Shown in pieces: positions 29,601 to 61,309 of a DNA stretch of 64,000 nt; position 1 is the first letter of the stretch, and the number at the start of each line of letters is the position of its first letter. The stretch covers positions 8,605,213 to 8,669,212 of the forward strand of contig CM119270.1 in assembly GCA_051294375.1 (NCBI GenBank), given 5' to 3'. The stretch is from Paraspadella gotoi (Eukaryota > Animalia > Chaetognatha). The position numbers and the translations under genes are program-made. Under the pieces are notes generated by a model. The model had not been told where the DNA came from. It saw only the letters and a program-made list of their open reading frames with translations, and did not search any database.

Positions 29601-32600
29601 AAAATGATCGATTACGACAAGCTGCCGAGAGGCAGTCGGCTCGACGACGTCTTCGAGCTGCAAGGGAATCTGCAGCCGATCGATTAGCGGAAGAGACACG
29701 CGCTCAACGAGTTCCAAATGCTTCGCAAGCGCCAGCGGTCATCTCGGGACCGGCGCCGATCTTCCCCGCGTTGCCGGCGCCCATCCCGATTTCCGTCTAG
29801 GTTGGCGCGGACGTCGCGCCTTGCCGAGAGGTCTGGTCGAGTTAGCAACGGGTCTGAACGCCTTGCCTGCGAGAAGAGCCGGACCTTCAGCCGAAAACAG
29901 CCCGTCGGCGGCAAATCTGACGACTTTGACCGAGAGATTGTCCGCGATAGAGATTGTCGCCCAGCGGCAGGTCGCCGCGCACGAGATCGAACGAGAACAG
30001 TGGAGACTCGAAAGGGAGAATCTTCAGAGGAATTTTGAGGCCACGGTAATGAGAATGGTTACGATGATTTTAGGGCGCCCAGCGGCGAGAATGCAGCCCC
30101 ACGGATAGAAACGCCGCCTTCTCCACCTCGGGCACCGCTTCCTCGGACTCCTACTCATCAGCCCCACGCTTCGACTCTCCATGATTCTTTACCTCAAAGA
30201 AACAATTCTCAGAGAGATCCAGCGATCGACGCACAACAAGCGCAAATTGCTCAACTTTCAGAACACACTACGACAAGTACAAGAGAATCTGAATGCTTTT
30301 CAGCACACGAGAACGGTGGGGCGGCTTCTGGGAGGCGGCCCCGCCTCCTGAGGCTCCCCCCGCCGAGAACGATCGACTACAACAGTATTTACACTCCCAA
30401 TCGATAGAGTCGACGATCCGCATGCTCAAAGACTTACGCCCAGAAGAAATGTTAGGAATGAAGGAGCTAAAACAAAGTAGTCTTCGAAATTCACATGAGA
30501 CAATGGGAGGCGGCGATGACTCAACCTGGTGTCACCGCTCAGATGCGTCATCAGGAACTACGCCACTGGTTCGGCGGTCTCGCGCGGTTGAAACTCCAAA
30601 AATTTTTTCATCGGACTGATTATTCGGCGGCCGTAGATGAAGCCGTCGCAATGCTTCATCAGGAATTCGGACGACCCGACGCCTCGCCTCACGAAATGCT
30701 AAAAGATTGTTTAGCCGGTGGTAAGGCAACGGAAGCGACGGAGATCGACGAGACGATTACGCATCTAGAGAATATCGCCGGCATCGCGGAGGCAAAGGGC
30801 CGAATGCGCGATTTGAACCGCGACACGGTTATCTCAGAGATTCTCGACGCAAAGTTTCCTCAATGGAAAGACAAATTTGCAGAGGAAAATTCGCAATCGG
30901 TCTTTAGAAATGGACGAAAACTTACGCTTTACGAATTTATTGAATTTTTGAAAATTCACCTTGTTGCGGTGAAATCGGTCTATGGCAAAAAGAAAAGATA
31001 GCGACGACGGCTGCGGTGGCGGCGGTTGCGGCAAACACTGGCACGCTGCCCCCGTCGAACAACGGTGGCATCGAGGATCAGAAAGGGAAACGAGTGCCAC
31101 AGACTCGTTCGATTCGTCTGACGCAGCCGATCCCGCCCAACCGGAGTTGCAAAAGAAAAAGAAAAAGAAGAAGCGACGAAAGAGAGCATAACTGAAGCGA
31201 AGCCCACGGTTCCTCTCCCAGAAGCCGATTGTGCCTACATAACAGCCCAATGGCCGACTTATCCGGCCATTCAGCCGGTGCAGCCGCCGATTCAACAGGC
31301 GGCGGCTACACCTGCTCCCCAGATCCAGATGGTGACGAATACGCCAGGAGTTCCGATGTATACCTCGACGCCGACTCGCCCGTCAAACTCCGCATTGCTA
31401 CTTTTGTGGACAAGACCATATGATCTGGGAGTGTACAGGCTATCAGGCACTCGGCGTCCAGGCGAGAGCCGACTTAGCGGCAGGCCGACGATTATGTTTT
31501 AAATGTTTAACTCCTAACCATTTAGCAATTAGATGTAGATCTAGTGTATCATGTAATCAGTGCAGGGGAAATCATCATCCCATGCTGCACGGCGCGGCGC
31601 CGGTGCCCCGACAGATGCCGGTTAATCAGGTGGCACAATATCAGCCACAACTGGTTTATGTTCAAACTCCTGCTCCCGGCCATGCTACACCTACCCTTTT
31701 CCAATCCGCTCCTTCCTCATATGCTGTTTTTTCTCCTTCCCAGCCCCTTCAGGACCCTGGGACGGCGAACGCTGCGGCGACGGCGCAGGGAGGACTGGCC
31801 GATTCAGATCAAACGAGACCAATGACGACGGTTCCATGCCCCCGGCAGCAGCAGCGACACCAGCAGCGATGCCCACTCCGCAAGCGGGAACAATCAACAG
31901 TTGACTAGCAGTTGCGTTCGCTCCTGGCGAGGCGACCTTTCGTCCTGTCGTGCCAGTCGTCGTCGAGATGAACGGACGCAAACGCACGACTTATGCAATG
32001 ATCGATAGCGGCTGTAATCGCTGTGTATTGAAAGAAAACATTGCCAACGATCTAAGTATAACTTGCAATGATGTAAAAATGCGAATTCGAACTTTAGATA
32101 GTGATGTTTATTGTAGACAAGAAAGTTGCTGATTTTAATATTGAACCACTTAATGGAACTTTTTCTCTTTCTATCAGGAAAGCGATTGTGGGATGTTTAC
32201 TGACTTCGGAGGACGACCTCCCCCGTGCGATGCAGATTGGTCGACAAGCCTCATCTCAAGGGGGTAACGTTCCCCAACCTCCCTGACAAGGAGGTCGGCG
32301 TGCTCCTCCCGGCAAACTACGCCTACACTTGGATTGATGGAGAGGTTCGACGAGGTTCGCGAGACCAGCCGGTAGCATCAATACGATGTTCGGCTGGACT
32401 TTGATCGACCCAGAGATGGAAAAGCGGCGATGACGTGGATTGCGGCACGCATGACCGCCAGATTGTTGAAGATTTACCAATTGTACATAAATATATCGTT
32501 GACTTACTTGACGACTTTCGTTTAGTACAGTCGATGCAAAAGATGGTGAAAGATTATCGGTTTTGCGACTTCCGTAAAACAAAAAAAAAGTGAAATGTTG

Positions 32601-35600
32601 CGAATCTCAAACAATAAGCCAACAACTTTGTCGACAACCGTGGCGCCAACCGACAACAGATCCTTTCTCGGTCACCGAAATCCTTGCTCAGCTCCTTCCT
32701 TCCCCCTCGATGCCGGAGCTCATTTCGGCGGGGGAGAACCATTTTCAGCAAAGACGAGAACCAACCCATGATCTTTGAAAGAGACGAGGCGCCCAAGTCC
32801 GTGCCCCGCCGACTTACGGCGGGCCAGACGCGGCCTGGCGCTCGTCAGAAAGAACATTGAAGCTGATTCTGTCGCGACATCGCAGCCAAAGACCGGAAAT
32901 TGTCCATGGACGCTGTTGTATTATAGACTCGTTTTTAAAATTTTATCCATTCGTTTTTATCTATTAGCTTGTAGTATCCTTCTTGAAACGTTCGATTTTA
33001 TCATTTAAAGATTAGTTCCCCTTTTTTTTATTGTTTGCTCAACTGGTTGTTCTACTAAGAATTTGACGCGTACGCTCAAAAGAAATTTTATTTTGACGGT
33101 CTCGTGACTTGGTTAAAATTCATTGTGTAACACATTGCAAAAAATAATTTATTACTTTGATATTGATTGTGACATTCAAACGTTAGAAAGATTCAATCAC
33201 ATAAAAAGTAAAAGAAGGTACAGTTTTTGACAGGCATTGAAAACAACACGGATAAACAATATTTTCTTCCTCTCCCCTTTTCTTATTTTTTTTCATTTGT
33301 TTCTACACTTTATTTATTTCTTCTTTTCTTCACTTTGTCTTATTTCTCCGCTTCCACTATCTTGATTCTTCTCTTCCCCTTTCTTGATTCTTTCTCTTCC
33401 TCTTGGGCATGCTTTACACTGCCCCTTCCAGATCAGAGTGGTTTTCGTTGGAGTTTTTCCACCGCTCTGATGGAGCTGGGGTGGGGTGTAGAGATATGTC
33501 CCCCTTTTCCCCCATTTATTTGTTTGCCTTTTGTTATTACCATTTCTGCCGATAGATGTCTTTTTCCTTTCTTTAGGAGATTACACTCCTCTTTCTTTTC
33601 TTACCAGATATTCTAGGCCATGTAGATTCTTAGGACTTTTCCGCCCTCACCAAACTGCCTTTTACGAGGTTCCAGGACGCCCTCATGTCACCATTAGTCA
33701 CCTTTGATACCGTTCACAGACAGTGATGCCACGGCCATAGAGCTTGTGGCGAGACCACACTCCAAGAGACTCGTGGGCTTACTCGTGGTCAGACTTTAGA
33801 CCCCGTCATAGACTGGTGGATGGACTTGTGGCCCACCACATTCGGCCACACTCGGGTGACATATAGCCTCGCCGACTACTTCCTCACCAGCGAGCCGACG
33901 GTTTCGGCGCAAGCACAACGGCGCTGGACGCGGCCACGCCCACTTCTGGAGGCGTCAGCGGGGACCTGGGGGACGGCGGTCCTCCGTAACAGCACGACGG
34001 CGGCGAAGCGGAGGCGGCTACACGAGCACACGGCAAGTGTTCGTTACAGATCGGTCCATCCAATCTGTTGCGCCGCAGTGATTTTTTTTCACGGGTATTT
34101 CCCTGAAATCATATGATTAAGAAATTTATGTTTAACAAATGTCTTATATATTGTATTTGTATTTATGACACGCACTGCATAGGAATTCTGTCTTTTATTC
34201 TTTATACTATAGTTTTAGGATTTCCTGAAGGTGGCACTAGCAGTCCCTTAGATTTGAGTTTTTTCTTATCTGAATAAATGAGCAACCAAGTATAGGCTAG
34301 TTACGAGCATTTTTTAATAAAAGTCGGAAAGACCGATGGACAGTTCGACCAAAAAGATATCCAACAACATTGTAACTTTTTAAAAAATCTAATTAAAGAT
34401 TAAGTTTTTATTTTAAGCTAGATTTATTCTGAAATCATAAATTAATGATTAAATAAAATGATTAATTAATTGACTAATTGATTAATTAACTGATTAATTA
34501 TTAGATTTATTAATAATCCTGCATATACATTTAATATAAAAGGAAAAAGAAGCATAATCAATTAGTGAAACAGGTTTTTTTTTTTCAATTTAAACTAATT
34601 TCCACTCAAACGATTCTATCGAAACTTGATTTCTGTTCAATCACACACTTTCCTACCCACATATAAAATCCAGGCCAATCGCCCCATCCACTCATGAGCA
34701 ATTGGTATTCAAATAGTGATATATATTTTTTGTTTTTTAGTCGGATCTGCTTATCAGCAGATCCTGACTCTATAACTCACTTTGTCGGTCCGTCGGTCCG
34801 CCCCCTCAATATTGTCGGGCACACACTTATATCATGTCAGAACATCGAATTTGATAAATTATTCAAAAAAAATGATGTCCGTCCATCCGTCCGTCCGTCC
34901 ATCCGTCCGTCCGTCCCACCTTAGCAAAAAACATAATTACTCTGTGATTGGATGGATGGATTTAAATGAAATTTTGTGTGAGGATAGGTAAGTGTGTGAT
35001 TGAGCTGGATATGTTTCGATAGAATCGTCCAAGTGGAAATGAGTTAAATGGAAAAAACAAAAAAAATATATTCACTATTTGAACACCAATTGCTCATGAG
35101 TGGATGGGCTGATTAACCTGGAATTTTGTATGTGGGTAGGAAAGTGTGTGATTGAACAGGAAATCAAGTTTGGATGGAATAGTTTGAGTGGAAATGAGTT
35201 TAAATGGAAAAAAACAAAAAACCTGTTTTACTAATTGATTATGCTTCTTTTTCCTTTTATATTAAATGTATATGCAGGATGTATTAATAAATCAAATAAT
35301 TAATCAGTTAATTAATCAATTAGTAAATAAATTAATCAATAATTAATTAATTAGTCAATCAATCCGTCCCATCCGTCCCATCTTAGCAAAAAGCTCCCAA
35401 AACTCGTTGATTGACTGGTTGGATTGGAATTAAATTTTGTGTGTGAGTAGGAAAGTGTGTGATAAAGCAGGATATAAAGTTTCGATGAAATCGTGTGAGT
35501 GGAAATTAGTTTAAATGGAAAAAACATAAGTCGAATTTACTAAAATCTTTTTACTTATTTTAACCAATAAATACTCTAATTAATCATAATTGGATGGATA

Positions 35601-36312: not shown

Positions 36313-39300
36313 TGGAGAGAAAGAAATAGAATAAATCCTCGAAAATCTCGGATGAAATATGGGATTTTGTATTGAAAAAAAGCGCGGAATAAATGGTAAT
36401 AATAAAAAGTTTTTAGAAGGAAAAAAATAATCAGAATTTTTCAAAAACAAAACGATTACGCAAGAGATCGGACAGAGAGGGACAGACACACACAGAGAGA
36501 AAAGAGAGAGAGAGACAGCCGCTGCAGAAAAAAGAGAGAGAGAAAGAGCGATATATAATAATTAAAAGAGAGAGAGAGAGAGAAGCTCTACAGCCCCTTT
36601 ACTCGTTAAAGAATCAGCAGTACTATGGCGCCGGACGTAGCGTGAGCTCTTCTTTACTCAAAGGACCCGGGTTCGCACCCTGTTCGCGGCATCGTTTTTT
36701 ACATTAGTGAGCCCACATTATATCTAAAACTTTTTTTGTAAAAAAAAAAAAAAAAAGAGAGAGAGAGAGAGAAAGAAGCTGGACAGACGCTGCAGAGCCG
36801 GAACTCGTTTTTAGACAAATCAGAAGAAGCAGTGACGGAGAAAAGAGAGAGAGGAGAGAGAGCGGACATATATTTAAAAAAAGAGAGAGAGAGCGACATA
36901 TAATTAAAACGTTTTTGTTTTGTAAATAAAACAAACAAATACGAATATTGGTATGAAACATGAGAATTTTAAAGATCTTGATCTTAAAAGCCATATATGA
37001 AATTTCAACTCCCTATGATATCACACTTTCAGAAGCCATGATTGCAAAAAAGCGTGACCGAAAGCTAAACCGAATCAAAATCTAGTAATGTTATATTTGT
37101 TTGTTTTGATAAAATGTAAACAAAACATTTAATAACTGTCCTGACTCAATTTTAAGGACATCGATGATGACAAGCTGAATATTAATTATAATTAATTATT
37201 AAAATTAATTAATTAATTAATAATCTATTAATTAATTAATTAATAATCAATTAATTAATTAATTAATTAATCTAATAATTAATTAATTATCGTAGGCAGA
37301 TCCGACATTGTTTGCTCAAACTTGTTTCATTTAAACTCATTTCCACTCGGACGATTCCATTGAAACTTTATATCCAGCTCAATCACACACTTCCCTACCC
37401 ACACACAAAATTTCATTCCAATCCATCCATCCAATCACGAGTGTTTTTTGCTAAGGTGGGACGGACGGACGGACGGACAGACGGACGGACGGACATCAAT
37501 TTTTTTGCATAATTTATCATAATTCGATGTTCTGACATGATATAAGTTAGTGCCCGACAATATTGAGGGGGCGGACCGACGGACCGACAAAGTGAATTAT
37601 AGAGTCGGGATCTGCTGATAAGCAGATCCGACTAAAAAGAGAGAGAGAGAGAGAACGACATATAATTAAAACGTCTTAGTTTTGTAAATAAAACAAACAA
37701 ATCCGAATACTGATATGAAACATGACAATTTCAAAGATCTTGATGATGGGAAGCCATATCTAAATTTTTAACTCCCTATGATATCACACATTTAATAGAA
37801 TCAATGTTAAAAAAGCGTGTCGCCAACGATAACGACGACGACGTCACAAAGAAGCTGAGCCTTTGCTTAATCTCGCCAAGACGGGCTTTGGCCAGTCTGG
37901 CGAGATAAAAAGAAATTTCAACAAAAATCATAACTTATCATCCTATTCGCTGCTTACCGCTGACTGCTTGCGCCGCCTTCAGGAAATTCTAAAACTATAA
38001 AGAATAAAAGACGGAATTCCAATGCAGTTTGTGCCATAAATACAAATACAATTTAAAGATGTTTGTTATACATAAATTTCCTAGTCATATAGTCATGTGA
38101 TCATAGGGAAATGTAAAAAAAAAGTCACTGCGGCGCAACACATTGGATTGACCGATCTTGTTTACATAACAATCTGATCCGATTGGCTTCCTTATAGGTT
38201 TCTGAGTCCTACAATGTTGGTTAAGCAAGAAAAGCAAAAATTAACATTTTTTAAAAAATATCTCTTTTTAACAGTAAAAATAATTGAAAAATTATAAGGG
38301 AAAAAGAGGGAGGAAAATGTAAGCATTAGGATAGCGCCTTTCCCTCTCATTTTTAAAATAAAATTTGACTATGGACTGCTTTGAAAAATCATTGATTCAT
38401 TAGTAGAATCGAATGGCATAAAAATAAAAATATAAAAATAATTCTACAACAAATTGCTTTATACTAATTTACAATCTACTGTGCCTGTGATGTCTCTCTA
38501 ACAACAAATAAATATCTATATTCTCCTGTTAGGTTTGCAGCTGATAAAAAACGCTTCTTTCCGGGGTCAAGCTGGGGCTGGCTTGATTTCATAACCCTTA
38601 TTTTGGGAATTATAAACATTATCACCGTGCCAATACAGGCTAATTGGATTGGGAGTGAAAACTGCCGCGTTGCAAGGGAAACTCAGGGGCAAACAGTTGA
38701 TATTAGGTAATTAAATACATTAGATACATTCTTTTACTATTTAGGCGACTGCTATTTCAGAATTCTGAAGGATTTTGTATTTATCTTTGTTTTTAATTGT
38801 AACAAATCTAACTTTTCAAAAGAGTTTAACTTTAATATTTATAACTATCACTTAAACTCATACTTTTGACAAAATCTTGCCACAGCAACTATTAATAAAC
38901 ACTATGAAAATGTTTACCAATAATTTTCCTAATGTACGAGGGTGATTATTATAATTATCAAATAGTATTTAAATTTTCTTTTTTCAGTCGAAGCTCTTTT
39001 TTCATTCGCATTCTTCGTCTAGTTCGATTTCTGAGACTATTTCGGCTTCTCCGCATTTGCTTGCCAGAATCTTCTTCCATCGTCCAAAACATAAGAGACA
39101 AGGCCTTTTACAAGTGAGGCATATTACTTTGAATTTTTATATTAATGTACTTTGTACTTTATATTTGTATTCTTAGGGTATTTGCCAAAGCCGCGGGTAT
39201 GACAGAAGCTCAAGATTTTATTGCGGATAACTTGAAGCACAATATGATTGCCCCGTCCTCACTTATCGTTGATGGCATAACTGCCAGAGTTCACGCTAAC

Positions 39301-42300
39301 CGTTTCGTCGGATACAAGTGTTTTACAAGTGTTATAATTAATAATCTTTTTGCTTTATTAGTCGGATCTGCTTATCAGCAGATCCCGACTCTATAATTCA
39401 CTTTGTCGGTCCGTCGGTCCGCCCCCTCAATATTGTTGGGCAGTCACTTATATCATGTCAGAACATCGAATTATGATAAATTATGCAAAAAAAACGATGT
39501 CCGTCCGTCTGTCTGTCCGTCCGTCCGTCCTTAGCAAAAAACACCAATTACTCGTGATTGGATGGATGGATTGGAATGAAATTTTGTGTGTGGGTAGGGA
39601 AGTGTGTGAATGAGCTGTATATGAAGTTATATCTTGAAAACTATTATATTAGTGAATACTAATCTATAGTTATTTTTATTTTTGCATAAATATAGTAGCC
39701 CAGTCAGCTTATTTTGTATATAGTACTACCCTTATAAGCTTATATAATGTCAAATTTCAAAATAGTTTTTAAATTCTGAGAACAGATTCAGATTCCTTGT
39801 TGAAAGTTGATAAAAGAAAATATAACTATTTTTTTAAATTGTTAAAATATGTAGGTTAAAATTACAAAAAACTATATTTTTAAGCTCAAAATTAAAAGTC
39901 GGCATCTTAAATATAGTTTTTTAGATTTTTGACCAACTTAATAAAACAATTTTTAAAAAAGAATTATACTTTCATATATTAACTTTTTGCAAGGAATCCA
40001 AATCCGATCTTAAAATTTAAAAATTTGTATTTTGAAATTTTAGCCATTATAATTTATATACTATGGTGAACTAATATCCATTAACTGTTCATCAGCGGCC
40101 ATTGGTGCTGGAGGCAAGTCATTCGCTTCTCAACCCAAAGGTCTGGGGTTCTAGCCCGGTGGCTGCCTAGCAGTTAAGAGAGACAGGGCGCTTAACCCGC
40201 CTGTAACATGGTGTTACAGCCTGATCCAAAGTTCAGGGACTGCTTATATTGAACGGTTCTGTCATTAACACATCACAATTATCACTGATGTTCATTGGTG
40301 AGCCCGACTTTTGAACACAACAGCAACAACACTTTCAGGCGACAGGCCTCAATCTGGCGATGCACTTTCCGCCAGCAACACATCAGGCAACATGCCTTAA
40401 CTTGGTGACGCACTTTCCACCAACAACAATTCACTGAAGAGACGCAACTGACTTCTCCCTACGGGAGGGGGGGATGAATGGTGGACTAAAATCCACCAAC
40501 CGTTCATCAGCAGTCATTGGTGCTGGAGGCAAGTCATTCGCCTCTCAACCGAAAGGTCCGGGGTTTTAGCCCGGTGGCTGCCTAGCAGTTAAGAGGGACG
40601 GGGCGCTTAACCCGCCAGTAACATGGTGTTACAGCCTGATCCAAAGCTCAGGGACTGCTTATATTGAACGGTTCGGTCATTAACACATAACAATTATCAC
40701 TGTCTCTTCAATACTTATTATTATATATTTATTTGGGCAAAATGATTTTTGTTTCACAACGAATTTTATTTTATCATATAAACGTACATGTTTCGGCTTT
40801 GGATACAAGCCTTCTTCAGCGTCAATGATTTGTGAAAATTTGTACAGTTTTTTGTGTGAAAGAAGGGAGAGAGAGAGAGAGAGAGAGGGCAAAGTTTCCA
40901 ACACAGAGTTGAGAAAAAAGAATAGTGGCGTGTCATTGGTTGAGAGGACAATTGAACCGAATATGTTATTATCGGGCTAGGGAGGCTTCCTTGCGGAAAC
41001 ATTCCAAGTGCTACTCGAATGTCTCTTTGGCCTGATACGCCTGCCAGCTGCCCTCTTCTCGCCTGCTGACGAGGTGGGCGGTTGTCAGTTCTTGCCACTT
41101 TTGTGACAGGAGTGCTGGACTCCTCCCCCTCCTCCTGAAGCCGTCGTTTTGGTCGACGCTCGGTCCCCAGAGAGAGGGATTGAGTTCCTACCAGTCGAAG
41201 AGGAGAGGCATCGCCTGCCCATTGCCTGCGTAAGGGTCTCCGCCTGTCACGTTGAGTAGCAACAGGGGAATCATTGTGCGGACGTGGTGGAGGCGGGGCT
41301 TCCACCACGCTTTTTATAAGCGAATCATAGTTGGAGGGAGGTCGAATCGTCCTCCATCACGGTTCAAAGAGGTTCAAGAGCTTTGATATAGATGCCTCCC
41401 TAATACCTCTTGAGAACCAGTTCGGGTCATGGGACAGCACGAGACAGTCTGACTCTCTAAATGAGTGGCCAGTGTTTGCTGTGTGCTCAGCAACAGCGGA
41501 CAGGAGTGCCCGCGAGCGTCACGGTAGGGTTTCGTATATTGAGGATTTTACCGTAACGCCGTGAGCGAGCTAGTGTTTTCTGACCTGCTATTTATTATAA
41601 AGATTCGAAGAATGTAAAAATTAGTAATATTTATATGTGAGTTATTCAGTAGAGACGATGAGCAAGCTAGCGTGAGACGTGAAGCACAGTAGAAGGGAGA
41701 CATAAAGCAAGTCGAAGGAGATCAAGATAAGGCAAAAGTCGAAGAGCTAAGCTCGAAGGGAGACTATTATCTAGAAGATAGCAATCAAAAAACATCTAAA
41801 GATACTTATAATAAAAAAAAATAAAGTCAACTTTAAGCTTAACCATAAAATTACAAATATCATTTTAAATGCTTAACGCATCGTCACGAAATCATTGGTA
41901 ACTTATCCTCTTAGTTTTAGGTAAGCACATCTCTTTTATATCTTGTTAAGGCACAATCATAAGGACTAACCAATCAGAGAGACGACGTTTAAAATACTTG
42001 ATCAAACAGATACTTCGTAAGCAACAAAATACGAATTCAATAATAAAAAGGGCATCAAACAACCGACGAGAGACTATCTCGTAACAAATAAATTTAACAT
42101 CGTATGTTGCTAGAACCGATCCGTCAGAGACTTCCTGTCTCGCCCACGTAGCTGCTGTGACAGGGTTGGTTGCCCGCTCACTTTGAGCTCTATCTTAATT
42201 CTTAATTTCTAACTTTATAACAATCTTCTACACTAAATGTATCTTTCACTTTCACATTTCATTTCACCTTCACTTATTTATTTATTAAATAGTTAATTGT

Positions 42301-45300
42301 TAATAACAGTTAAAAACTTATATTGTTGTACATTTGAAATGTAATATTATTTTCTCTCTCCCTGTCTCTCTCTCTCCCTCTCTCTCTCCCTCTCTCTCTC
42401 TCTCAATCTCTCTCACTCTGACCATTTCATTTCTTATTCAAAACTAAAATCTCTATCTGTCCTCATTCTTAACCTGTCCTACCACACCCTTGACCACTAT
42501 TCTTTTTTCTCAACTCTGTGTTGGAAACTTTGCCTCTCTCTCTCTCTCTCTCCTCTCCCCTTCTTTCACACAAAAAACTGTACAAATTCACAAATCATTG
42601 ACGCTAAGAAGGCTTGTATCCAAAGCCCAAACATGTACGTTTATATGATAAAATAAAATTCGTTGTGAAACAAAAATCATTTTCCCAAATTAAATGTAAC
42701 AGAAAAAGAAAGGTTATTACCACTATATATTTATTATATAATATATATAAATGTAGCTCACTGGTGCCCACTAATGTATGAAATTAAAAAATAAATTTAC
42801 CAAAGTATTCTTAATGGTTTTTATTTTCACGTTTTATATGCTAAATTTTAATTTTCTAAAATTTTATCATTTTCACATCACTCTAATGGTCAGTATTTTT
42901 TTCATTGAATTAGTTCATAAATAATGAGTTTCCAAGGAAAAAGATTGTTGTATGGACTAAAATCCACCAACCGTTCATCAGCGGCCATTGGTGCCGGAGG
43001 CAAGTCATTCGCCTCCCAACCCAAAGGTCTGGGGTTCTCGCCCGGTGGCCGCCTAGCAGTTAAGAGGGACGGGGCGCTTAACCCGCCTGTAACATGGTGT
43101 TACAGCCTGATCCGAAGCTCAGGGACTGCTTATATTGAACGGTTCTGTCACTAACACATATCAATAATTACTATCTCTTCAGTTATTACAATCGATTTAA
43201 TTCTACTATCTCTATCAGCTACGTCGCTCAACTCTCAGCTCAGAATCCACCCGTAGAGGTATCTCTACGGACTCGGCATGCGGCCACCAGAATTCTTGAT
43301 GTCGTGTCTCATCGCGTTAGGCTCCTCTATGTTCACGGAGTATTGGAGGATTCCGAAAAGGTGCGGCTATTCTTCAGCCCAACTTTTTATCTTGCAAGCC
43401 TTTGGCACTTCAAGATATACGTATGAGAAAACAATGCCGGATCTGTTCACGATAATTTAGCGGTAAGCAGCTAAGCAGATGATTAACCCGCCAGTAGGCT
43501 TAGGCCTGCTGCCAGATTCAAAGCTCTGGACTACATGAACATGCTGTCTCGCTGTCGCCACGAGGTGACACCGCTGCGGGTGTGGCGCCCTGTAAAACCA
43601 GCCTCTTCAAGCGGTGATTAAGGATAAAAAGCTAATCAGATGATTTACCAACTCTGCCCTAATTTAGATACCTCATATGACAGCTAATTTTAAATTATTT
43701 TTTATATATTTTCATGCCAGTCCCTGGAGGATGCTCTCAATATTCACTAGCAAAAACAGTTTTAAAGTTCCTACAATAGTTTCCGAGATATAGTCATAAA
43801 CGTCAGCCTCGAAAGGCAAAATTTTTCAGAATAAAATTTTCTAGTTTCTCTAAAGATTTCTGACGCGCTATTTGAAAAAAAAGAGAAAACGTTTCGCTGA
43901 TTTCTACAAGCATTTGCCATAAATGAGTTATACAACTGAATGTGATATGTCTCTAAATAACAAAAAATTTGCCGAAATTTTTATTTAACAAAGCTTTGTA
44001 TTGCGTAGTTCAAATCCTTAGTTCTTTAACAGAAAGAAAAAAGGTAGCAAGGTGGTTGCGGTATCAAATTAAAGCCCTAATCATGGGACACCTTTTTAAA
44101 ATAGTTTTAATAAATTTTATCCCCAAATATTTATACAGTTTTTTACAAAATTTATGGAGGAATCTACCTAATTATATATCGTTTAAAAATGAGGTGCAAG
44201 GAATTAAAAAAAAAAATCATGAAATTAATAACAGTTATGAAATACTCTTAAGGAAACATTGGACAACATCTTAGAGCGAAAGCGACTGGACCTTTGCCAC
44301 ATGCCGCCGCGTTTAGAGGAGATGCCACTTGAAGATGTTTTCCGCACGATTCCTTGGCTGGAAGGATTTAAGATGGCACAGAGATTTATTCATCAGGAGG
44401 CAACAGTCATTAAATTTAAAGAGGGCGAGGTGCTCAACCAAACTTTTAGATATGAGGTAATGTAAGAATGAATATAATGATTGAAATACTGTTCATGATG
44501 ATTATGCTACAATTCTTTTTAAAACTTGTCTTTCTGTATAAAAAGTTTACAGTATGGCAATGGGGAGACATGTGTGATGCCCGGGGGGTGAGGCATCTCC
44601 GACAGCTGTCGCACAGGGCTCTGAACCTGCAGTGACAACCCCATGTCACTGGCGTGAATATGCCGACACCATCACACTTTAAGCAACGTGACCGTGAGGG
44701 GACAGAACCAGGAACTCACGGTCGGAGAACGAGCACTTAGGTTTCCAAGCTAATGGGACGAGCAGATTTTTACCAAGCTATACGGGAGGCGAATTTAGTA
44801 TTCGCCACAATAAAAAGTTTTTCTGGTATGGTCTCGTCATTTAATTGAGAAAAAAATATATTATAGGGAATTTATATTTTGGCCCATGGATATGTTTTGC
44901 TGAAGGGATTGAAAGGCCTCATCCGTGCCATAGTGGTCAATGGTCTTAAAAAAGAATACAGTGGTACTAAATTAGACATATTTGGCAGGTTGAGTCTAAA
45001 CTGTGCTTTGCCACAGCTTTAACAATCAATTCTTTAATTTTTCTATAAAAAAAATTTGGGTATTATTTTTCTCCAGCTGGCCAGATTACATTCCATTCTT
45101 GTATCTCAAGTACCTGCTTCGCCGCGGTCCCTCTGCTTCTTACATTGAGCAGGGATTTGGGGCCGAGATAAGAAACGACATGTTGCAGATGGAATTTGCA
45201 TTCGTCACCCGCGGATACGTTATAAACGAGATAAATATGCTCATGCCAAACATTACTGTTTGCAAGGCAATCTGCAAGACACCAGTCATAGCTTATTACT

Positions 45301-48300: not shown

Positions 48301-50428
48301 GATACATTGTGGCGGTATATTCACACCGCCTCAACATTTAGATTTAATACTGCAATATGTAAATAAAATTGAGAATTCAATCTCATTTAAGATCATATTA
48401 AATAATCATCTCTTACAGTTGGACTTCTCTTTTTCTCTTTCTTTCTCTCTCTTTCTCTATCTCTCTCACTCATACTTTGTTACTTTGTTTTATTTACGAT
48501 GAATGATTAATCACGTCAATGAATGACTATCATCGCATCAATGAATGATTATCATCACATCAATGAATGACTGTCATCGCATCAACATTTGATTATCATC
48601 GCATCAATCATTTCGTTATCATCGCTTCAATTATTGGTTATTAGTTATCATCGCATCAATTTTTTGTTTTTCTTCTTTTATTTCTTTATTTCCTTCTCTC
48701 GTCTGGCGAGATCACTATTATTTTAAGATTTTTTATTACCAAACCCAATCGCTAACCGTAATCACCAACCCTAATCCCTAACTCCCGAACCCTCGACTCC
48801 AATCCTTAATTTTAACCCGAACCTTTAAGCTTAGTCCTTAACCATAATCCTTAATAACAATCACTAACCTGAACCCTAACCTAATCTCGCACCATTATTC
48901 AGAATTTAAGGCGAAATGTGGTGCTTTGAGAAGCCCAAAGGCCGCTTTGTAAGGGCGAACTACAATGTCTGACATTCAATTAATTTCTTATTTATGAATA
49001 TTATTTGTACTAATCCAGTATCCCATATTCATTAATGATATATTAAGTAGTAAAGTAGCATATCCATTTATATGTGGATAAGGCGCTAAGTGGGCTGAAG
49101 ATGACTATCCGCAAATTCTTTAACCCATCTAGCAGCCATGGAACGGGTCCTGGGCTTGGAACTAGGCTTGAGGGTTTTCCACGCCCCCAAGGCGGCTTAC
49201 GGCCGTCCTCACACTTCCCACAGGGTAGGTACCGGGTTGTACCGGGTTCAATCCCAACCCAGTACCTAGTGGTCATGAGCTGATGGCTTTACTCAATGAG
49301 CCACCGGGTCACAACTGAAAGTGTCATGCTTATTGGCGGGGTGAACCTAGGCAATGCCCAACTACATATATAGTTATTATTCCAGGTCAGTACCTAGGCA
49401 AAGTGTTTGTTGTTCCTCATTCTCGTGCCAATCACTTTGTGAAAGGGGCCAATCTTGAAGACATTAAAGAGAAGGTATTGTATAATATTTTAATAATAAA
49501 ATGGTAAGAAATTATATATTTCGTTGTCTGCAGGTTGCAGAAATGCTTATTCAACGAAAGATTGATGGCGTTCAACATAAAGAGAGTGTGGACGACCTCA
49601 TGCAGGTGGCGCTGCAAAGACTGGACGGATCTGACAGAGTTTTCAACCGCAACAGTATGCTGCTCATCTGCATGAGAGCCAGGATTAAGCAGGTCAAAGA
49701 TAACTTGAGGCGATGTCATAGATGATGATTGATGAGGATCATAATGAATACGATGGTGATTATTATGACGAGTGATCAGGTGATTCGCGCGGCTTACACT
49801 CTGGAGGACGAGACAATCACTGCCGAAGGCGTGATTCTTAATGAGGGATGCCTTGCGCCCGACAGCGAAGAGGATGAAGAGAAAAGGATTCAACACGCCA
49901 TAGAAAAATTAGGCAAGCTGATGCAGGTAATTGGTTGGATTTGCAAAAGGAAGTAATATATAAAACATATTATTATATTATATTATTAACTTCATATATT
50001 ATATAAATAATAGATAATATCTGTAATTGAAAAAATAAATACATAAATACAGAAGGCCCATACAGTTTACAATGCATCATGACAAAAAAAAAAGATTATC
50101 ATTAATATATTCTGGGTCACATTCTTTGAAATATTATACAACTTTATTGATAGGGAAGCCAGGTACTCTTGCCTTGGAGTAAATAAACTCGACTGCAGGG
50201 ACCTGCTATGTAAGATATGTAAGATTGATGGAGGCCTTAAACCACCAAAGCCTGTCCAAAGTCAGGGGCAAGATAGCTTATTTATGAAATGAATGGATAA
50301 TTTTTATATTGGTTGTACCAATTTCATAAAACGAACGAAAAACAAAAATAGTATTAAATTTTTTCTAGGTTCCTCCGACTACGGGGGCCACGTACGGTGG
50401 TGCGAAATCCGTCCCAGGAGTTTCTTAA
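2572..50428 (+). CDS. SLC9C1: SLC9C1/sNHE-like voltage-gated Na+/H+ exchanger, multi-exon, 5'-partial (overall span)
   Basis: Manually spliced exons: 2572-2686?, ~3883-4116, 8486-8615, 15462-15535, 15874-16059, 18687-18845, 20658-20721?, 20784-20853, 24803-25249, 27574-27773, 27841-27921, 38533-38706, 38988-39113, 39177-~39317, 43219-43360, 44253-44456, 44867-44988, 45077-45305, 45434-45611, 46507-46598, 46927-46957, 49386-49474, 49534-49692, 49780-49926, 50369-50428. Domain order NHE TMs > cytosolic helices (DRFLADADW) > VSD S1-S4 > CNBD > C-terminal beta region is the SLC9C architecture. Most junction phases are consistent; two are not resolved. Confidence 0.88.
3883..4116 (+). CDS. SLC9C1: SLC9C1-like exon (NHE TM11-TM12)
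   Basis: VTRVLFVLILYPLLRITGFGITWRGAVVIVWSSIRGVVPLFLAA matches the CPA1 'W..LRGAV.L.LA' motif; donor at 4117; acceptor approximate. Confidence 0.85.
4545..5100. repeat. 18-bp minisatellite (CATAATTTGGTCAACTGG)
   Basis: Tandem array; related arrays at 5960-6380, 6750-6820 and 22215-22740. Confidence 0.9.
5960..6820. repeat. 18-bp minisatellite (CCAGTTGACCAAATTATG), interrupted by a solo LTR
   Basis: Tandem array, reverse complement of 4545-5100. Confidence 0.9.
6387..6745. mobile_element. Solo LTR inserted in an 18-bp minisatellite
   Basis: TGTGAA...TTCACA termini, 5-bp TSD ATATG. Confidence 0.7.
7072..7966. mobile_element. hAT-like MITE
   Basis: Imperfect TIR TAAGGCGTAGTAAAAGTTA/TAACTTTCGCTACGCTCTA with 8-bp TSD CTATCCAT. 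Confidence 0.82.
8486..8615 (+). CDS. SLC9C1: SLC9C1-like exon (NHE TM13)
   Basis: TILVSTVGVSLLLMVINGITMSAMLSALGYNQVSLAKR; tgtag|...|gtgag, in phase with the previous exon. Confidence 0.85.
9234..11954. mobile_element. Tc1/mariner-like MITE containing a nested HINE
   Basis: TIR CCATGATGGAAAAA/TTTTTCCATCATGG, TA on both sides; paralogue at 45680-46463. Confidence 0.8.
9626..11478 (+). mobile_element. Helentron-associated non-autonomous element (HINE/DINE-1-like), full-length example
   Basis: T-run, 5' hairpin AGTC(G/A)GATCTGC..GCAGATCCCGACT, GTCC microsatellite, ~155-bp internal tandem units, 18-bp minisatellite, 3' subTIR GCAGATCCGAC plus GTTTGCTCAAAC hairpin and T-run. Confidence 0.75.
11957..12180 (-). 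mobile_element. Old Penelope pLTR relic (continues at about 9180-9231 across a MITE)
   Basis: Minus strand resembles 42400-42620 and ends in AAGGCTTG|TA; continues CAGTAAAGGCGATA beyond the MITE. Confidence 0.55.
12195..12235 (+). pseudogene. 3' part of tRNA-Leu with encoded CCA (extended PBS copy)
   Basis: TCTCTGCGGAGGCGTGGGTTCGAATCCCACTGCTGCCACCA is the variable arm, T arm and acceptor 3' strand of eukaryotic tRNA-Leu plus CCA; the 5' half is absent. Confidence 0.85.
12236..12560 (-). mobile_element. LTR-like repeat related to 25659-25953
   Basis: Minus strand reads TATAAATAGC...AATAAAATTCCACTTTGATTTCATATTGAAATC...CTTACTTAAATG, the same 3' end as 25953 and 26924. Confidence 0.75.
12813..13448. 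mobile_element. MITE with ~55-bp TIRs (Tc1/mariner-like)
   Basis: CATGGTGACAATTTTACAAGCGCCGGTAGAAA..TTTGCAAACC mirrored at 13396-13448. Confidence 0.7.
15462..16059 (+). CDS. SLC9C1: SLC9C1-like exons 15462-15535 and 15874-16059 (first cytosolic helices)
   Basis: Spliced product ...LFLHSD|RFLADADWAYIE...CPECHSRHPNSPSNKELEDMEEEAR; DRFLADADW and the CPxC...EEAR segment are typical of SLC9C1. Confidence 0.88.
16720..17087 (-). mobile_element. Internally deleted relative of the 25659-26924 element
   Basis: Minus strand aligns to 25666-25830, then 26030-26200, then the terminal AAATCTCTGTCTACTTACTTAAATG. Confidence 0.7.
18156..18459. mobile_element. MITE with ~60-bp TIRs and internal TTAGGG-like repeats
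   Basis: AAAGTAGCGAATTAG..AAGGCG..TTGGCCTTTG..TAGCAAGCCTC mirrored at 18399-18459; degenerate GGTTAG units between. Confidence 0.72.
18687..18845 (+). CDS. SLC9C1: SLC9C1-like exon (cytosolic helices)
   Basis: RQRILRLEGVNYSQQYNKGSI resembles 'RLRMLKAEKISYWKQFEHGML'; good splice sites and in phase. Confidence 0.8.
19372..20210. mobile_element. hAT-like MITE, inverted copy of 7072-7966
   Basis: Full-length reverse-complement similarity; TSD decayed; fragments also near 39700-40060 and 50140-50330. Confidence 0.75.
21165..21448 (-). mobile_element. Solo LTR, second tRNA-carrying family
   Basis: TGT...ACA ends, 4-bp TSD CATT inside a HINE; minus strand has A box TGGCTCATTGAG, CTCAT loop, B box GGTTCAATCCC. 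Confidence 0.82.
22215..22740. repeat. 18-bp minisatellite inside a HINE
   Basis: Tandem CATAATTTGGTCAACTGG. Confidence 0.9.
23440..23635 (+). pseudogene. Penelope reverse transcriptase fragment
   Basis: NGQIPMLDVLVKRKEGGSLEFSVYRKPTHTD*YIPFDSHTPLSHKLATVR, the PLE RT thumb motif, with an in-frame stop. Confidence 0.85.
24803..25249 (+). CDS. Probable large in-frame insert exon of the SLC9C1-like gene (149 codons)
   Basis: gattag|GAC...AGA|gtaagc, phase 0/0, open in ORF 24809-25264, fits between exons 20784-20853 and 27574-27773. No recognisable homology. Confidence 0.55.
25659..26924 (+). mobile_element. Deleted LTR-like retroelement with tRNA-Leu-type PBS and gag-like ORF
   Basis: 152-bp direct repeats 25802-25953 and 26773-26924 (TATAAATA, AATAAA; 3 A/G differences); TGGTGACAGGAGTGG at 25954; coiled-coil/Pro-rich ORF 26246-26782. 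Confidence 0.72.
26995..27226 (+). mobile_element. Truncated copy of the second tRNA-carrying LTR family
   Basis: Reverse complement of the 21165/49073 copies, including GGTGGCTCATTGAG...CTCATAAC...GGTTCAATCCC. Confidence 0.75.
27574..27921 (+). CDS. SLC9C1: SLC9C1-like VSD S1 (27574-27773) and S2 (27841-27921) exons
   Basis: HSLAFEIIFIILIIGNSVPLLIE (S1) and WVDVCFMTLYIIEFALR (S2 with F..Y..E...R/K). Confidence 0.85.
27968..34048 (+). mobile_element. Bel/Pao LTR retrotransposon, internally deleted (gag-PR only)
   Basis: Near-identical LTRs 27968-28533 and 33487-34048 (TGT...ACA), 5-bp TSD GATCG, purine-rich tract before the 3' LTR, Bel/Pao-type Cys-His boxes and DSG protease; no RT/RNaseH/IN visible. 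Confidence 0.93.
28690..32300 (+). pseudogene. Frameshifted Bel/Pao gag-protease
   Basis: Fragment ORFs 30495-31001 (gag core-like), 31420-31908 (LCFKCLTPNHLAIRCRSSVSCNQCRGNHHPMLH zinc knuckles), 31950-32132 (TYAMIDSGC aspartic protease). Confidence 0.85.
34737..37326 (+). mobile_element. HINE/DINE-1-like element with extra internal sequence
   Basis: 5' hairpin at 34739, 3' subTIR at 37296-37326. Other full or partial copies at 1-866, 4302-4450, 5627-6970, 13683-14420, 14930-15376, 20878-21950, 22005-23270, 23675-24335, 37330-37636, 39358-39630, 47594-48297. Confidence 0.68.
36613..36718 (+). other. Degenerate tRNA-derived unit, probably a diverged TRIM LTR remnant
   Basis: A-box-like TGGCGCCGGACG, B-box-like GGTTCGCACCC, T-run, then ACA followed by TTAGTGAGCCC, which resembles the 40295 PBS. 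Confidence 0.5.
38533..39317 (+). CDS. SLC9C1: SLC9C1-like VSD S3 (38533-38706), S4 (38988-39113) and following helix (39177-~39317) exons
   Basis: SWGWLDFITLILGII (S3); FIRILRLVRFLRLFRLLRI (S4, six Arg at i+3 spacing); phases consistent. Confidence 0.9.
40062..40710 (+). mobile_element. Complete TRIM with tRNA-like cassette in each LTR (Helenus-like)
   Basis: LTRs 40062-40294 and 40475-40710; PBS-like TGGTGAGCCCGAC at 40296-40308; PPT GGGAGGGGGGGA at 40463-40474; TSD ATAC; tRNA-like unit at 40095-40167. Confidence 0.85.
40731..41505 (-). mobile_element. 5'-truncated Penelope-like element (GIY-YIG C-terminus plus pLTR)
   Basis: Minus-strand SAVAEHTANTGHSF...VLSHDPNWFSRGIREA/IYIKAL..LNRDGG (frameshifted), followed by a tail with a hammerhead motif; inverted pLTR copy at 42497-42690. 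Confidence 0.85.
40781..40823 (-). ncRNA. Minimal type I hammerhead ribozyme (Penelope-type)
   Basis: GACG-CTGAAGA-A-GGCTT(gtatcca)AAGCC-GAAA-CATG-TA-CGTT: intact core, stem I, stem II and palindromic CATG stem III. Confidence 0.8.
42497..42690 (+). repeat. Inverted Penelope pLTR copy with mutated hammerhead
   Basis: Reverse complement of 40731-40925; core reads CTAAGA...CAAA (42600-42641). Confidence 0.8.
42949..43181 (+). mobile_element. Solo LTR of the same tRNA-carrying TRIM family
   Basis: Highly similar to the 40062/40475 LTRs; tRNA-like unit 42981-43052 with perfect GCGGCCA/TGGCCGC acceptor-like stem. TSD not clean. Confidence 0.8.
43219..46957 (+). CDS. SLC9C1: SLC9C1-like C-linker, CNBD and beta-region exons (43219-43360, 44253-44456, 44867-44988, 45077-45305, 45434-45611, 46507-46598, 46927-46957)
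   Basis: QNPPVEVSLRTRHAATRIL, IPWLEG, FKEGEVL..GIYILAHGYV, LEARLWK, LRRGFVV, MLLEGTAY, GPCEMPR follow the SLC9C1 C-terminus in order. Confidence 0.85.
44553..44808. mobile_element. Diverged relative of the 56047-56301 element
   Basis: Shares TGTGATGCCC, the CAGTGAC..GTCACTGGCG hairpin and a terminal GGCGAAT..ATTCGCCACA hairpin. Confidence 0.55.
45680..46463. mobile_element. Tc1/mariner-like MITE
   Basis: TIR CCATGATGGGAAAA, TA TSD, internal similarity to 9234-9620 and 11480-11954. Confidence 0.8.
46318..46400 (+). mobile_element. Penelope-type 3' tail with 5'-clipped hammerhead
   Basis: TGATGAA-GACTC(gtaccactaa)GAGTC-GAAA-CATG-TA followed by AATAAA; absent from the paralogous MITE at 11757. 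Confidence 0.65.
49073..49366 (-). mobile_element. Solo LTR, second tRNA-carrying family
   Basis: Same family as 21165-21448; TGT...ACA; TSD TATA. Confidence 0.82.
49386..50428 (+). CDS. Probable terminal exons of the SLC9C1-like gene (49386-49474, 49534-49692, 49780-49926, 50369-50428 stop)
   Basis: AG/GT boundaries with consistent phases; KVFVVP resembles the end of the beta region; the remainder is unconserved. Confidence 0.55.
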
Positions 50429-53040: not shown

Positions 53041-56687
<3,647 letters not shown>

Positions 56688-57907: not shown

Positions 57908-58008
57908 TGGCCGTGTTTCTCCCGCGGCTCGACAACAACATAGCCTGCAGCGAGTCTTCGATCATTCGCACCTGATCGGCGACGTTGACGTCGACGATGC
58001 CGCCGACG

Positions 58009-58044
<36 letters not shown>

Positions 58045-59226
58045 TTGATGACGTCGAACTTCGAAACGACAAAGTCATCGGCATTTTCTTTTTCTTTTTC
58101 TTTTTTTTTTGTTTGTTTCAAGGAAACGAGTCTTGACGGAAATACTTCGTTTGTTAAGAATAAAAATGTTTTGGGATAATTTCTTGTAACGTTCTTCAGC
58201 GTTAATCTTTCTCTTGTTTTTTTTTGTTGTTTAAAATGTTTATTTTAATATATTAGCTATATGATCTTTTCTTCAGAATTATTTTTTTCTCGTAATTTCA
58301 ACTTTTAGTCAACCACCGCGGGCTTTCTTTCGATCAGTAAAATGACGTCATTGTAATTTTATTTTTTCGGCGTAAATTAATTTCCGTAATTAGAGCCCGA
58401 CGTTCCGCCTCTCGTGCCGAGGGCGAGAGATAGAGAGATGAATTTTTCGGGAAATACAATTTTAATTAACCGAATGAATCCGCGGTTTTATAGAAGTCTA
58501 ATCGATATTTTTTGGTAGGCGAATAAAATAGAGATAAAAAACGTCAGAAATGACACGTAGGAATTTTATTAGAAACGAAAGTTTCGGCCCAAACTTTGTT
58601 TTTATTCGATGCTGACGTTTCTGTTCACGTCGACGCCGATCACAAATTCTGCGAAAAACAACTCGTGTGAGATGTGACAAAGTCTAAAAAGCCTTTTTCG
58701 TGGTTCCGCTTCTCGCTGAGGGAGGTGGTGATGGGGGGGGTGACGAAAGACGAATAGGAGAAGGAGGGGTTTTAGATTCAACCAATGAGAGTGTCAGGAG
58801 TCGTCGATCGAATAGAGAGCCTCAACATTTTAAATCATGCTTCTCTGAAAAGATGAGCACCATGGAAACCAACCAATCGGAGGAAAGAAAAAACATTTGT
58901 TTCATAAGATTTGACCAATCAGTGATGGAATAAGCGATATAGTACGAGTTGAAAAAAGAAAACTCATCAGAATATATATCGTTGCTCTAATTAAACAGAA
59001 AATATCCACTCATCGCGGAGGTAATTCGTCTACCTTTTAGTTTTAACATCATTACCTCCTCCAATCAAAAACAAAAACAAGGTTCGAATCTCGAGATTAT
59101 AGACCAATCAGAAGCCAGGAAAAAATCCCGCGAGATTTTTCATAATCTCGATTTCGCCATCGGGAGAGTTCGTGAAAACTTAATGAGAAACTTTGAGCAA
59201 CGAGTAGGATAGAGAGCGAGACCATC

Positions 59227-59338
<112 letters not shown>

Positions 59339-59714
59339 TGGCAGAGGGTCACTCAGCCACGCGTTCCTTTCACAAGGGCGGTTTGTGATGTTTTAAAAAG
59401 CGTGACAGAAGGCTCTCAATAGAAAAGAGAGGAAGGAGAAGGAGGAGGAGGAGAGAGGACGGAGGAGGAGAGAGGGGGTGGGACGGAGGGCGCCACGGAC
59501 CTCAGAGGTTTGTGGCTTGAAATGGTTGAATGATTAATGATTCCGACGCCATCCTTTTAAAATACGACTTCGTTTATCGTTTCGAAAACATCTTTTGTTA
59601 AATATTACTTTTATTTTTTTTTTCTTCTCTTTTTCAATTTGAGTAATGGCTAATTCTGCCTTTAAAAAGGATATGAAGAATAAAAAGAGAAGGGAGCTTG
59701 TAACATTTTATCTT

Positions 59715-59754
<40 letters not shown>

Positions 59755-59766
59755 CTCTATCACTCT

Positions 59767-59801
<35 letters not shown>

Positions 59802-60931: not shown

Positions 60932-61309
60932 NGAGGATGACGTCGAAAAAGGGTTAAGTACTGTTTATATGAATTTATGATGTATAGCGTGAAATTTCAG
61001 AATATTATCGCGAATCTAAATGTTAACGTTCTCTGTATCAAATCGATGCCTCGCAAGTTTCATTCTTGTCCCCGCCTAAAACACATTTACTTACGTATTT
61101 TTGCTTGATATAAAAAATTCAATTCATTTTCTCTCTTTTTTCTCTCTTTCTATTTCTCCATAAATAAAAAACCCCCGCTGATGCTCTTCGGATGATTCCG
61201 AATTGATTCCCTACATTCTCTCTCTCTCTCTGTGCACGGTACATTCGTAATTCCTTTTTTGTATCGTCAGAGAATTGCCAAATTGCCGTTAGACTACGCG
61301 CGAGTGAGA

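Follow-up and report, generated by a model that had tools for sequence, protein, structure and literature searches.

A Helenus-type miniature retroelement of the chaetognath Paraspadella gotoi with predicted twister motifs in its long terminal repeats

TRIMs (terminal-repeat retrotransposons in miniature) whose long terminal repeats (LTRs) include tRNA-derived sequence are known as Helenus (Kojima 2024, PMC10886601). The element described here, at positions 40062-40710 (+) of a 64-kb window of Paraspadella gotoi contig CM119270.1 (the window being the whole stretch analyzed, 64,000 nucleotides), is by definition a Helenus-type TRIM: real, multi-copy and non-coding. Like Helenus/TRIMp3 (PMC10886601), it is shorter than 1 kb, encodes no protein and has a tRNA-like unit in each LTR, a primer-binding site (PBS), a polypurine tract (PPT) and, as in animals, a 4-bp target-site duplication (TSD). 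A first-pass annotation of the sequence had pointed to Helenus, and Kojima's definition indeed covers the element in size, LTRs, PBS, PPT, tRNA-derived sequence and TSD length. The nearest layout is that of Helenus-2_SyJa and Helenus-2_SyUm from Synergus wasps: their PBS is of the Trp type with a match over 13 nt, the tRNA part falls within the 5' half of the LTR, and no T4 run follows that part immediately; LTRs starting with TA, as in our element, are found in five wasp Helenus families. The element differs from Helenus in its more degenerate promoter boxes and in the twister-like motif of its LTR. In agreement with the earlier suspicion that the family is probably uncatalogued, five LTR/PBS probes had no match in Kojima's supplement; among the animal entries of its parts 1 and 5-11 (of 11) no similar LTR was seen, parts 2-4 being covered by motif search. 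Four twister loop probes are absent from the same supplement, and Kojima's text reports no ribozyme in any Helenus and leaves transcription of these elements by RNA polymerase III (Pol III) unvalidated (PMC10886601). By eye, a hammerhead-like core (CTGATGAG...GAAAC with flanking stems) is visible behind the tRNA part in Helenus-2_SyJa-LTR and Helenus-2_SyUm-LTR.

The second group of relevant systems consists of retrozymes. Plant LTR retrozymes (Cervera et al. 2016, excerpts of PMC4918200) resemble the element in having a ribozyme motif (predicted in our case) in each LTR, a non-coding core, PBS, PPT, a 4-bp TSD, a unit RNA without terminal repeat (predicted in our case) and a presumed Gypsy helper. 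The element differs from them in its animal host, in a predicted twister rather than a hammerhead motif, in the likely tRNA-like promoter within the LTR, in a Trp rather than a Met PBS and in a predicted unit of 415 nt as opposed to 600-1000 nt (same excerpts). Metazoan non-LTR retrozymes likewise place self-cleaving RNA in animal retroelements, and the axolotl representative has a stunted helix that is rescued by dimer formation (excerpts of PMC7229834); the available parts of PMC7229834 and PMC7761336 describe animal retrozymes without LTRs, PBS or PPT. Twisters have been tied to non-LTR elements, and those of the Perere-3 LINE, a long interspersed nuclear element, still cut despite a poor P1; Perere-3 has a single twister at the 5' end of an autonomous LINE, whereas our element has one motif per LTR (excerpts of PMC8501958). 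Cassandra, too, is a TRIM whose LTR carries a small-RNA promoter of the Pol III type, although this promoter is 5S-derived, the hosts are plants, terminators are present in the LTR and the available part of PMC7215508 reports no ribozyme. In the literature searched, which includes few subscription papers and excludes the location tables of PMC11662667 and PMC8501958, neither a twister in an LTR, nor an animal LTR retrozyme, nor a dimeric twister is described.

Anatomy, ends and copies of the element

The element is 649 bp long, with a 5' LTR of 233 bp, a core of 182 bp and a 3' LTR of 234 bp, close to the two ~235-bp LTRs around a ~180-bp non-coding core given by the first-pass annotation. Its parts and the two other family-1 remnants in the window are as follows.

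40058-40061, +: left TSD, ATAC (matching copy right of the element; empty-site-like contig ends)
40062-40294, +: 5' LTR, TA...CA (LTR comparison; end boundaries from contigs)
40095-40167, +: tRNA-like unit, a Glu/Gly-like pseudo-tRNA (ARAGORN at 86% of threshold; level reached by 0 of 300 shuffles)
40103-40114, +: A-box-like motif (comparison with the consensus)
40147-40157, +: B-box-like motif (comparison with the consensus)
40295-40476, +: core, 182 bp between the LTRs
40296-40308, +: tRNA-Trp-like PBS (12/13 match; identical junction in other copies)
40335-40430, +: two 48-nt repeats, each with two small hairpins (repeat and folding analysis)
40463-40474, +: PPT, a 12-nt purine run, followed by TG ahead of the LTR start (sequence)
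40477-40710, +: 3' LTR (contig ends before 40478 and behind 40710)
40510-40582, +: tRNA-like unit in the 3' LTR (88% of the ARAGORN threshold, a level reached by 1 of 300 shuffles)
40711-40714, +: right TSD, ATAC (matches the left copy)
42951-43181, +: family-1 solo LTR (TSD GTTG/GTTA; tRNA-like unit 42981-43053; twister-like motif 43055-43130)
15694-15728, +: 35-nt fragment of the 3' end of a family-1 LTR (LTR similarity)

The PBS, TGGTGAGCCCGAC, is identical in 12 of 13 bases to the tRNA-Trp PBS of Kojima's Fig S2, the purine run is G-rich, and the TSD matches in 4/4 positions (chance ~0.005), all as originally read. The core is non-coding (a 58-aa open reading frame, the one core frame scanned, has no Pfam match), and its two 48-nt repeats could be a packaging signal. 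The LTRs differ by 20 substitutions over 235 columns, which indicates an old insertion. A 9-bp inverted repeat (40498-40506 and 40665-40673 in the 3' LTR) encloses the tRNA-like unit together with the twister motif in all three LTRs, and a canonical AATAAA was not found in the LTR. The solo LTR reported at 42949-43181 is present, but its start is better placed at 42951, where the TSD matches in 3/4 positions (1/4 with 42949). The segment 15471-15728 was considered as a sister or helper LTR and rejected: the last 35 nt alone are shared, and 15561-15664 is a different, separate repeat of ~104 bp with sharp ends in contigs.

Other copies were assessed in contigs from four of the nine sequencing runs listed (three studies), in which 15,397, 8,292, 2,713 and 997 contigs, respectively, were placed on the element. 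The summed contig depth over the LTR amounts to thousands of times the single-copy depth, a value that is not readable as a copy number, and junction counts were used instead: 150, 142, 95 and 32 contigs break off before 40478, and 69, 61, 40 and 15 behind 40710. Thus, many copies share identical ends in all four runs, and their flanks are mixed, AT-rich and without a tail. The left-flank consensus is ATAT, followed at once by the T that opens the LTR, with no preceding TG in the 5' junction contigs; hence the element begins with TA, and not with TG as had been proposed. Right flanks open with ATAT or ATCT, and contigs of the host repeat that lack the element (27 and 24 in two runs) have a single ATAC followed by right-flank-like sequence. 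In other copies the LTR end is followed by T and then by the same PBS, and both PBS and PPT are in place; the TG between PPT and LTR and the T before the PBS would fit trimming of 2 nt by integrase at both ends. The sharp ends, the heterogeneous tail-less flanks and the PBS behind the LTR end in other copies refute a tandem SINE pair (SINE, short interspersed nuclear element), for which variable TSDs and tails had been named as the diagnostic outcome. A 21-nt LTR probe had no match in the metagenome scan.

In the tRNA-like unit ARAGORN detects no tRNA gene at its normal threshold, and an Rfam search of the LTRs gives no tRNA match. At 84-88% of the threshold, however, a Glu/Gly pseudo-tRNA appears in the same place in all three LTRs, a level reached by 0, 1 and 9 of 300 shuffles. 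A spacing of 44 nt, as in tRNAs, separates the A- and B-box-like motifs, and the acceptor-like stem has its full 7 bp. In the 5' LTR each box has one mismatch to the consensus; in the other two family-1 copies the A box has one and the B box two, so that the B box quoted in the first-pass annotation is exact for the 5' LTR and not for its relatives. GGTTC is present in two of the three LTR copies. There is no T-run behind the unit, and the two T4 runs of the copy at 40062-40710 are private to it and mostly absent from other copies, so that the family lacks a Pol III terminator. Because of the missing T-run, the sequence downstream of the unit was inspected.

A twister-like junction in three repeat families

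The 76 nt that follow the tRNA-like unit make up a closed three-stem junction. The two hairpins noticed there in the first-pass annotation exist, but belong to this junction, which fits a twister and was overlooked. Compared with the Rfam Twister-P5 and twister-P1 consensus, the order of parts is GA with three T1 bases, UAA, a short P2, GC, a P3 hairpin closed by C-G, and P4, which in family 1 has 4 bp plus a closing pair and the loop UCCGAAGC. Like type-P5 twisters (RF02684), the motif follows the order P2'-GAxyz-(P1)-UAA-P2-GC-P3-P4/L4, has UxxxAAGC as well as three T1 and two T2 pairs, and ends in P5. Unlike them, it has a 6-nt palindrome for P1, a 3-nt P2 strand, a P3 and, in family 1, an A-U closing pair, and it lies under the Rfam detection level. 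A second tRNA behind the first (Leu/Tyr in ARAGORN, at 75%) was considered for the same stretch and abandoned, the twister junction being the better explanation. Two further repeat families of the window contain the same geometry, and all sites are listed here.

40169-40244, +: twister-like motif of the 5' LTR with closing P5 stem, decayed (9/12 scored pairs; model R1 24.8 bits, E 1.2e-4; missed by the descriptor; predicted cut after 40193)
40584-40659, +: twister-like motif of the 3' LTR (11/12 scored pairs; cut predicted after 40608, at 415 nt from that of the 5' LTR)
43055-43130, +: twister-like motif of the solo LTR (12/12 pairs; predicted cut after 43079)
21165-21448, -: family-2 solo LTR, TG...CA, TSD AATG (tRNA-like boxes; twister geometry at 21242-21307)
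49073-49366, -: family-2 solo LTR, TSD TATA (family comparison; model R1)
54503-54766, -: family-2 solo LTR, TSD CATC (family comparison; model R1)
26996-27223, +: truncated, decayed family-2 LTR (family comparison; model R1)
50223-50266, +; 19815-19858, +; 7453-7496, -: family-3 twister-like motifs (model R1)

Family 2 comprises three solo LTRs of 264-294 bp that start with TGTAG and have 4-bp TSDs (3/3), plus one truncated copy. It has a tRNA-like A/B-box unit ahead of the motif, whose canonical B box is placed with respect to the motif as in family 1, and its best Rfam match is Twister-P5 (19.7 bits, E 0.075). In family 3, the repeat around the minimal motif spans 7388-7622 (-), 19729-19924 (+) and 50119-50331 (+) and apparently ends with CA. 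BLAST detects no similarity among the three families beyond words of 9-10 nt; for families 1 and 2 a gapped local alignment is borderline (25 of 500 shuffles), so that a distant common descent is possible.

A covariance model, R1, was trained on the four family-2 copies only. At E<=1 it yields 12 matches in the window: the four training copies, the three family-1 LTRs, the three family-3 copies and two weaker sites. The family-1 LTRs rank next after the training copies (28.0, 24.8 and 24.0 bits; rough E-values of 2e-5 to 2e-4). One of the weaker sites, 43457-43529 (+; 20.3 bits, E 0.0016), has good P3, P4 and L4, lacks the 6-nt palindrome and is followed 161 nt on by a 32-nt direct repeat; the other, 44613-44677 (-; 11.6 bits, E 0.23), has a tRNA-like stretch upstream. 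Both may represent further families.

The core bases G-A, AA, U and AA are kept in all 10 copies of the three families, while the helices vary. Pairs were counted on segments parsed by script since MAFFT misaligned the 5' end of families 1 and 2; when each family is represented by a single copy, pairing is seen in 35 of 36 scored cells. The pseudoknots T1 (three pairs) and T2 (two pairs) are complete in the solo LTR and in at least one copy each of families 2 and 3, and both covary. Between families, the pair types differ: C-G, G-C and U-A in T1, G-C and A-U in T2, A-U and G-C at the L4 closing position and G-U, C-G and A-U in the palindrome, and P2 and P3 vary as well. If the 3' letters were dealt among the families at random, the chance of all pairs being kept would be ~2e-4 (product of per-column counts, one broken column excluded). 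RNAalifold applied to the three family-1 LTRs finds no two-sided change in 67 pairs, these copies being too alike.

A descriptor was also built from the Rfam consensus lines, loosened for a 3-nt P2 strand with two pairs. It recovers 10/10 Rfam-matched phage twisters and 0/10 non-matches (20 of 127 loci were scanned by Rfam) and has four matches in the 64-kb window: the solo LTR, the 3' LTR (T1 2/3), 21242-21307 (-) and 3654-3734. For the solo LTR and the 3' LTR, respectively, matches arise in 0 and 3 of 20,000 shuffles with full T1, and in 6 and 7 of 20,000 with T1>=2. For five of the six positions at which predicted pairs are weakened in the copy at 40062-40710, contig depth was tabulated, and at each of them the pairing letter makes up 50-99% of the depth in all four runs. 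This copy is old and its predicted ribozymes have decayed.

Several observations weigh against the twister assignment and the mechanism built on it. Rfam finds no twister in family 1, and the family-2 score of 19.7 bits is under the gathering cut-off of 37.6. The descriptor was composed after the resemblance had been seen, was relaxed to admit the short P2, and also matches the unrelated AT-rich segment 3654-3734, which we take for chance. T1 is broken in both motifs of the copy at 40062-40710, albeit complete in the solo LTR. In all three families P2 is a 3-nt strand with two firm pairs compared with four in the Rfam consensus, the L4 closing pair in family 1 is A-U, and P1 is replaced by exactly 6 nt as against 14-44 nt in 22 phage P5 twisters. 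The pseudoknot-free minimum free energy structure is a non-twister fold in which the T1 strand pairs with P2/T2 bases. Family 2 on its own has no two-sided change, and three families amount to three independent points only. The viral contigs and metagenomes scanned, which contain few animal sequences, yielded no instance of the geometry beyond this genome. Beyond the motif itself, the A box deviates from the TRGCY/YGG motif of Kojima, other copies have the same PBS mismatch to tRNA-Trp (the reference being Kojima's PBS rather than the host tRNA), no helper element was found in the 64-kb window, and cutting, circle formation, Pol III use and the helper are all predictions from sequence.

On the specific defects, the published data point in two directions. 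A change of P2 length might disrupt the active site, and the closing G-C of L4 is essentially invariant (excerpts of PMC5408937). In tests of ~1,900 natural type-P1 twisters, defects in P1, P2 and P4 were tolerated and pseudoknot defects were not (excerpts of PMC11662667); P1 is described as dispensable, and P2 defects as tolerated, in the available parts of PMC11662667 and PMC5408937. As for other ribozymes, Rfam finds no hammerhead in family 1 and none was seen by eye. A short-P1 geometry scan of viral contigs had no match, and two short-P1 metagenome matches were dismissed as chance, having no P4, repeats or Rfam match. The twister-like motif of family 1 was probably an active ribozyme in intact copies.

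The segment in place of helix P1 is GGCGCU in family 1, CGGCCG in family 2 and AGGCCU in family 3. It is fully self-pairing in 9/10 copies, with an outer pair that takes three forms, whereas ~4% of the 6-mers in these LTRs are palindromic when G-U is allowed; the energy of the self-duplex is -8 to -11 kcal/mol in families 1 and 2. The replacement of P1 by a palindrome suggests that two ribozymes act as a dimer. The closest precedent is the axolotl hammerhead that has a single base pair under a palindromic tetraloop and cleaves much more efficiently in dimeric form (excerpts of PMC7229834).

Proposed mechanism and alternatives

We propose that the element probably functions as a twister-based LTR retrozyme. 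To the full scheme, a Pol III-driven animal LTR retrozyme with predicted twister LTRs, we assign a probability of roughly 0.55. The reading of the first-pass annotation, an ordinary TRIM, stands as far as anatomy goes, but missed the twister-like motif, with which the likely mechanism shifts to that of a retrozyme.

Transcription by Pol III would likely start near 40095 and proceed into the 3' LTR, there being no T-run to stop it. In active copies the twister-like motif would probably cut itself. We slightly favor a mode in which the two LTR motifs pair via their 6-nt palindromes, which would supply the missing P1, and cut as a dimer. The predicted cuts after 40193 and 40608 would probably free a 415-nt unit that runs from the LTR tail through PBS, core and PPT to the promoter-bearing LTR head. 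Such a unit has no terminal repeat and would therefore need circularizing, for which a host ligase such as RtcB is a reasonable candidate; RtcB circularized animal retrozyme RNAs in vitro (excerpts of PMC7229834). A Gypsy-type helper would then, with good probability, package the RNA, prime with tRNA-Trp, copy round the circle and so rebuild the LTRs, trim 2 nt per end and insert at NTAN-rich sites, duplicating 4 bp of the target. Only Gypsy elements share the PBSs of animal Helenus, the Trp PBS included (Kojima 2024, PMC10886601), as exemplified by Gypsy-32_NVi and Helenus-2_SyJa (PMC10886601).

The strongest alternative, which we nevertheless consider unlikely, is that of a conventional Helenus TRIM whose twister-like fold has no cutting activity and is a structural signal for termination, packaging or dimerization, the RNA being linear with terminal repeats. 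The short P2, the absent P1, the A-U closing pair and the lack of a family-1 Rfam match would all be expected if so, most Helenus families have no reported ribozyme, and palindromes act as dimerization signals in retroviral RNA. However, the cleavage-site A, the A next to it and the general-base G are kept in 10/10 copies of three families while the helices covary, which goes beyond the needs of a purely structural role.

Somewhat less probable again is that a ribozyme merely stands in for the Pol III terminator: the 3' motif would cut and the 5' motif mostly would not, leaving a linear RNA of ~40095-40608, terminally redundant over 99 nt, whose copying would be that of any LTR element, with no circle. 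The standard strand-transfer route would be retained, the missing T-run behind the tRNA-like unit would be accounted for, and weak activity of the monomer would leave the 5' copy uncut. Yet the LTRs are identical at insertion, so that nothing obvious restricts cutting to one of them, and the conserved palindrome points to a paired, symmetric action.

It is also improbable that the element is a retrozyme transcribed by RNA polymerase II or by host read-through, with the tRNA-like unit as a relic or structural module. Read-through has been proposed for retrozymes in reviews (excerpts of PMC7761336), a Nicotiana retrozyme LTR drives transcription (excerpts of PMC9695139), and our element has a degenerate A box and a tRNA score under threshold. 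These points are opposed by the boxes at the tRNA spacing of 44 nt, the full 7-bp acceptor-like stem, the canonical B box retained by family 2 at the corresponding place, and the lack of a canonical AATAAA in the LTR. Finally, a tandem SINE pair or a satellite mimicking an LTR element, which would explain the tRNA-like head and has a parallel in the Schistosoma repeats with a Pol III promoter and a ribozyme (excerpts of PMC6765202), can be practically dismissed in view of the fixed ends, the 4-bp TSDs (copy 40062-40710 and all three measurable family-2 solos), the lack of tails and the PBS/PPT in other copies.

Genomic neighborhood and implications

The element was inserted at the edge of an AT-rich palindromic repeat (39743-40051) that has relatives at ~7.2-7.8 kb and 19.5-20.1 kb, and 13 bp to its right lies a 2-kb element (40724-42698) with terminal inverted repeats of ~205 bp, 95% alike, whose frames have no Pfam match. 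A larger LTR element at 27967-34049 (+) has 571-bp LTRs that are 98% alike, a 5-bp TSD (GATCG), interrupted gag-like frames that contain Cys/His knuckles, and a match to an aspartyl protease. We take this element to be BEL/Pao-like from its look; it is unlikely to be the helper given its 5-bp TSD and the absence of a matching PBS. At ~12190-12236 (+) there is the 3' half of a tRNA-Leu-like sequence ending with CCA, whose reverse corresponds to the Leu PBS of Kojima's Fig S2 and which may be a tRNA fragment copied by reverse transcription.

Among host genes, one that is TRIM9-like, with coiled-coil, fn3 and PRY-SPRY parts, has exons at ~53040-55950 (-), of which a conserved one is 69-73% identical to its best matches, the named ones among which (best 120 of 1278) are all from vertebrates. 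This gene and the BEL/Pao-like element fit an animal host, and the level of identity points to an invertebrate that lacks closely related annotated species. An exon of an SOS1/SLC9C-like Na+/H+ exchanger is present at 3848-4081 (+; E 7e-10), and the gene possibly extends through ~49950. An S4-like exon at ~38990-39100 (E 4.6) hints, weakly, that the TRIM might lie in an intron of the exchanger gene, in the sense strand. The exons near the element have no significant PDB match. A 2.7-kb tandem duplication, 90% alike (58005-60614 and 61308-63926), surrounds a run of N and is possibly an assembly artefact.

More tentatively, these families could belong to a superfamily of animal LTR retrozymes, i.e., Pol III TRIMs with twisters that cut only as a palindrome-paired LTR dimer, giving a circular RNA of ~415 nt that is copied by a Gypsy helper. 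If this is correct, nothing in the literature searched would precede the element as an animal LTR retrozyme, as a case of a twister within an LTR or as a natural twister acting as a dimer, and the wasp Helenus with their hammerhead-like cores would represent a second, convergent instance. The tRNA-promoter TRIMs would thereby be joined with the ribozyme-bearing LTR retrozymes, and the latter would be extended from plants to animals with a different ribozyme. The scheme would also suggest how an LTR element driven by Pol III sets the ends of its RNA without a terminator or a terminal repeat. A twister dependent on two copies would represent a new mode of natural ribozyme action, under which the many solo LTRs need not sever host transcripts, and would provide a compact tool for circular RNA production. 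Given that the motif escapes Rfam, similar elements may be overlooked in other animal genomes.

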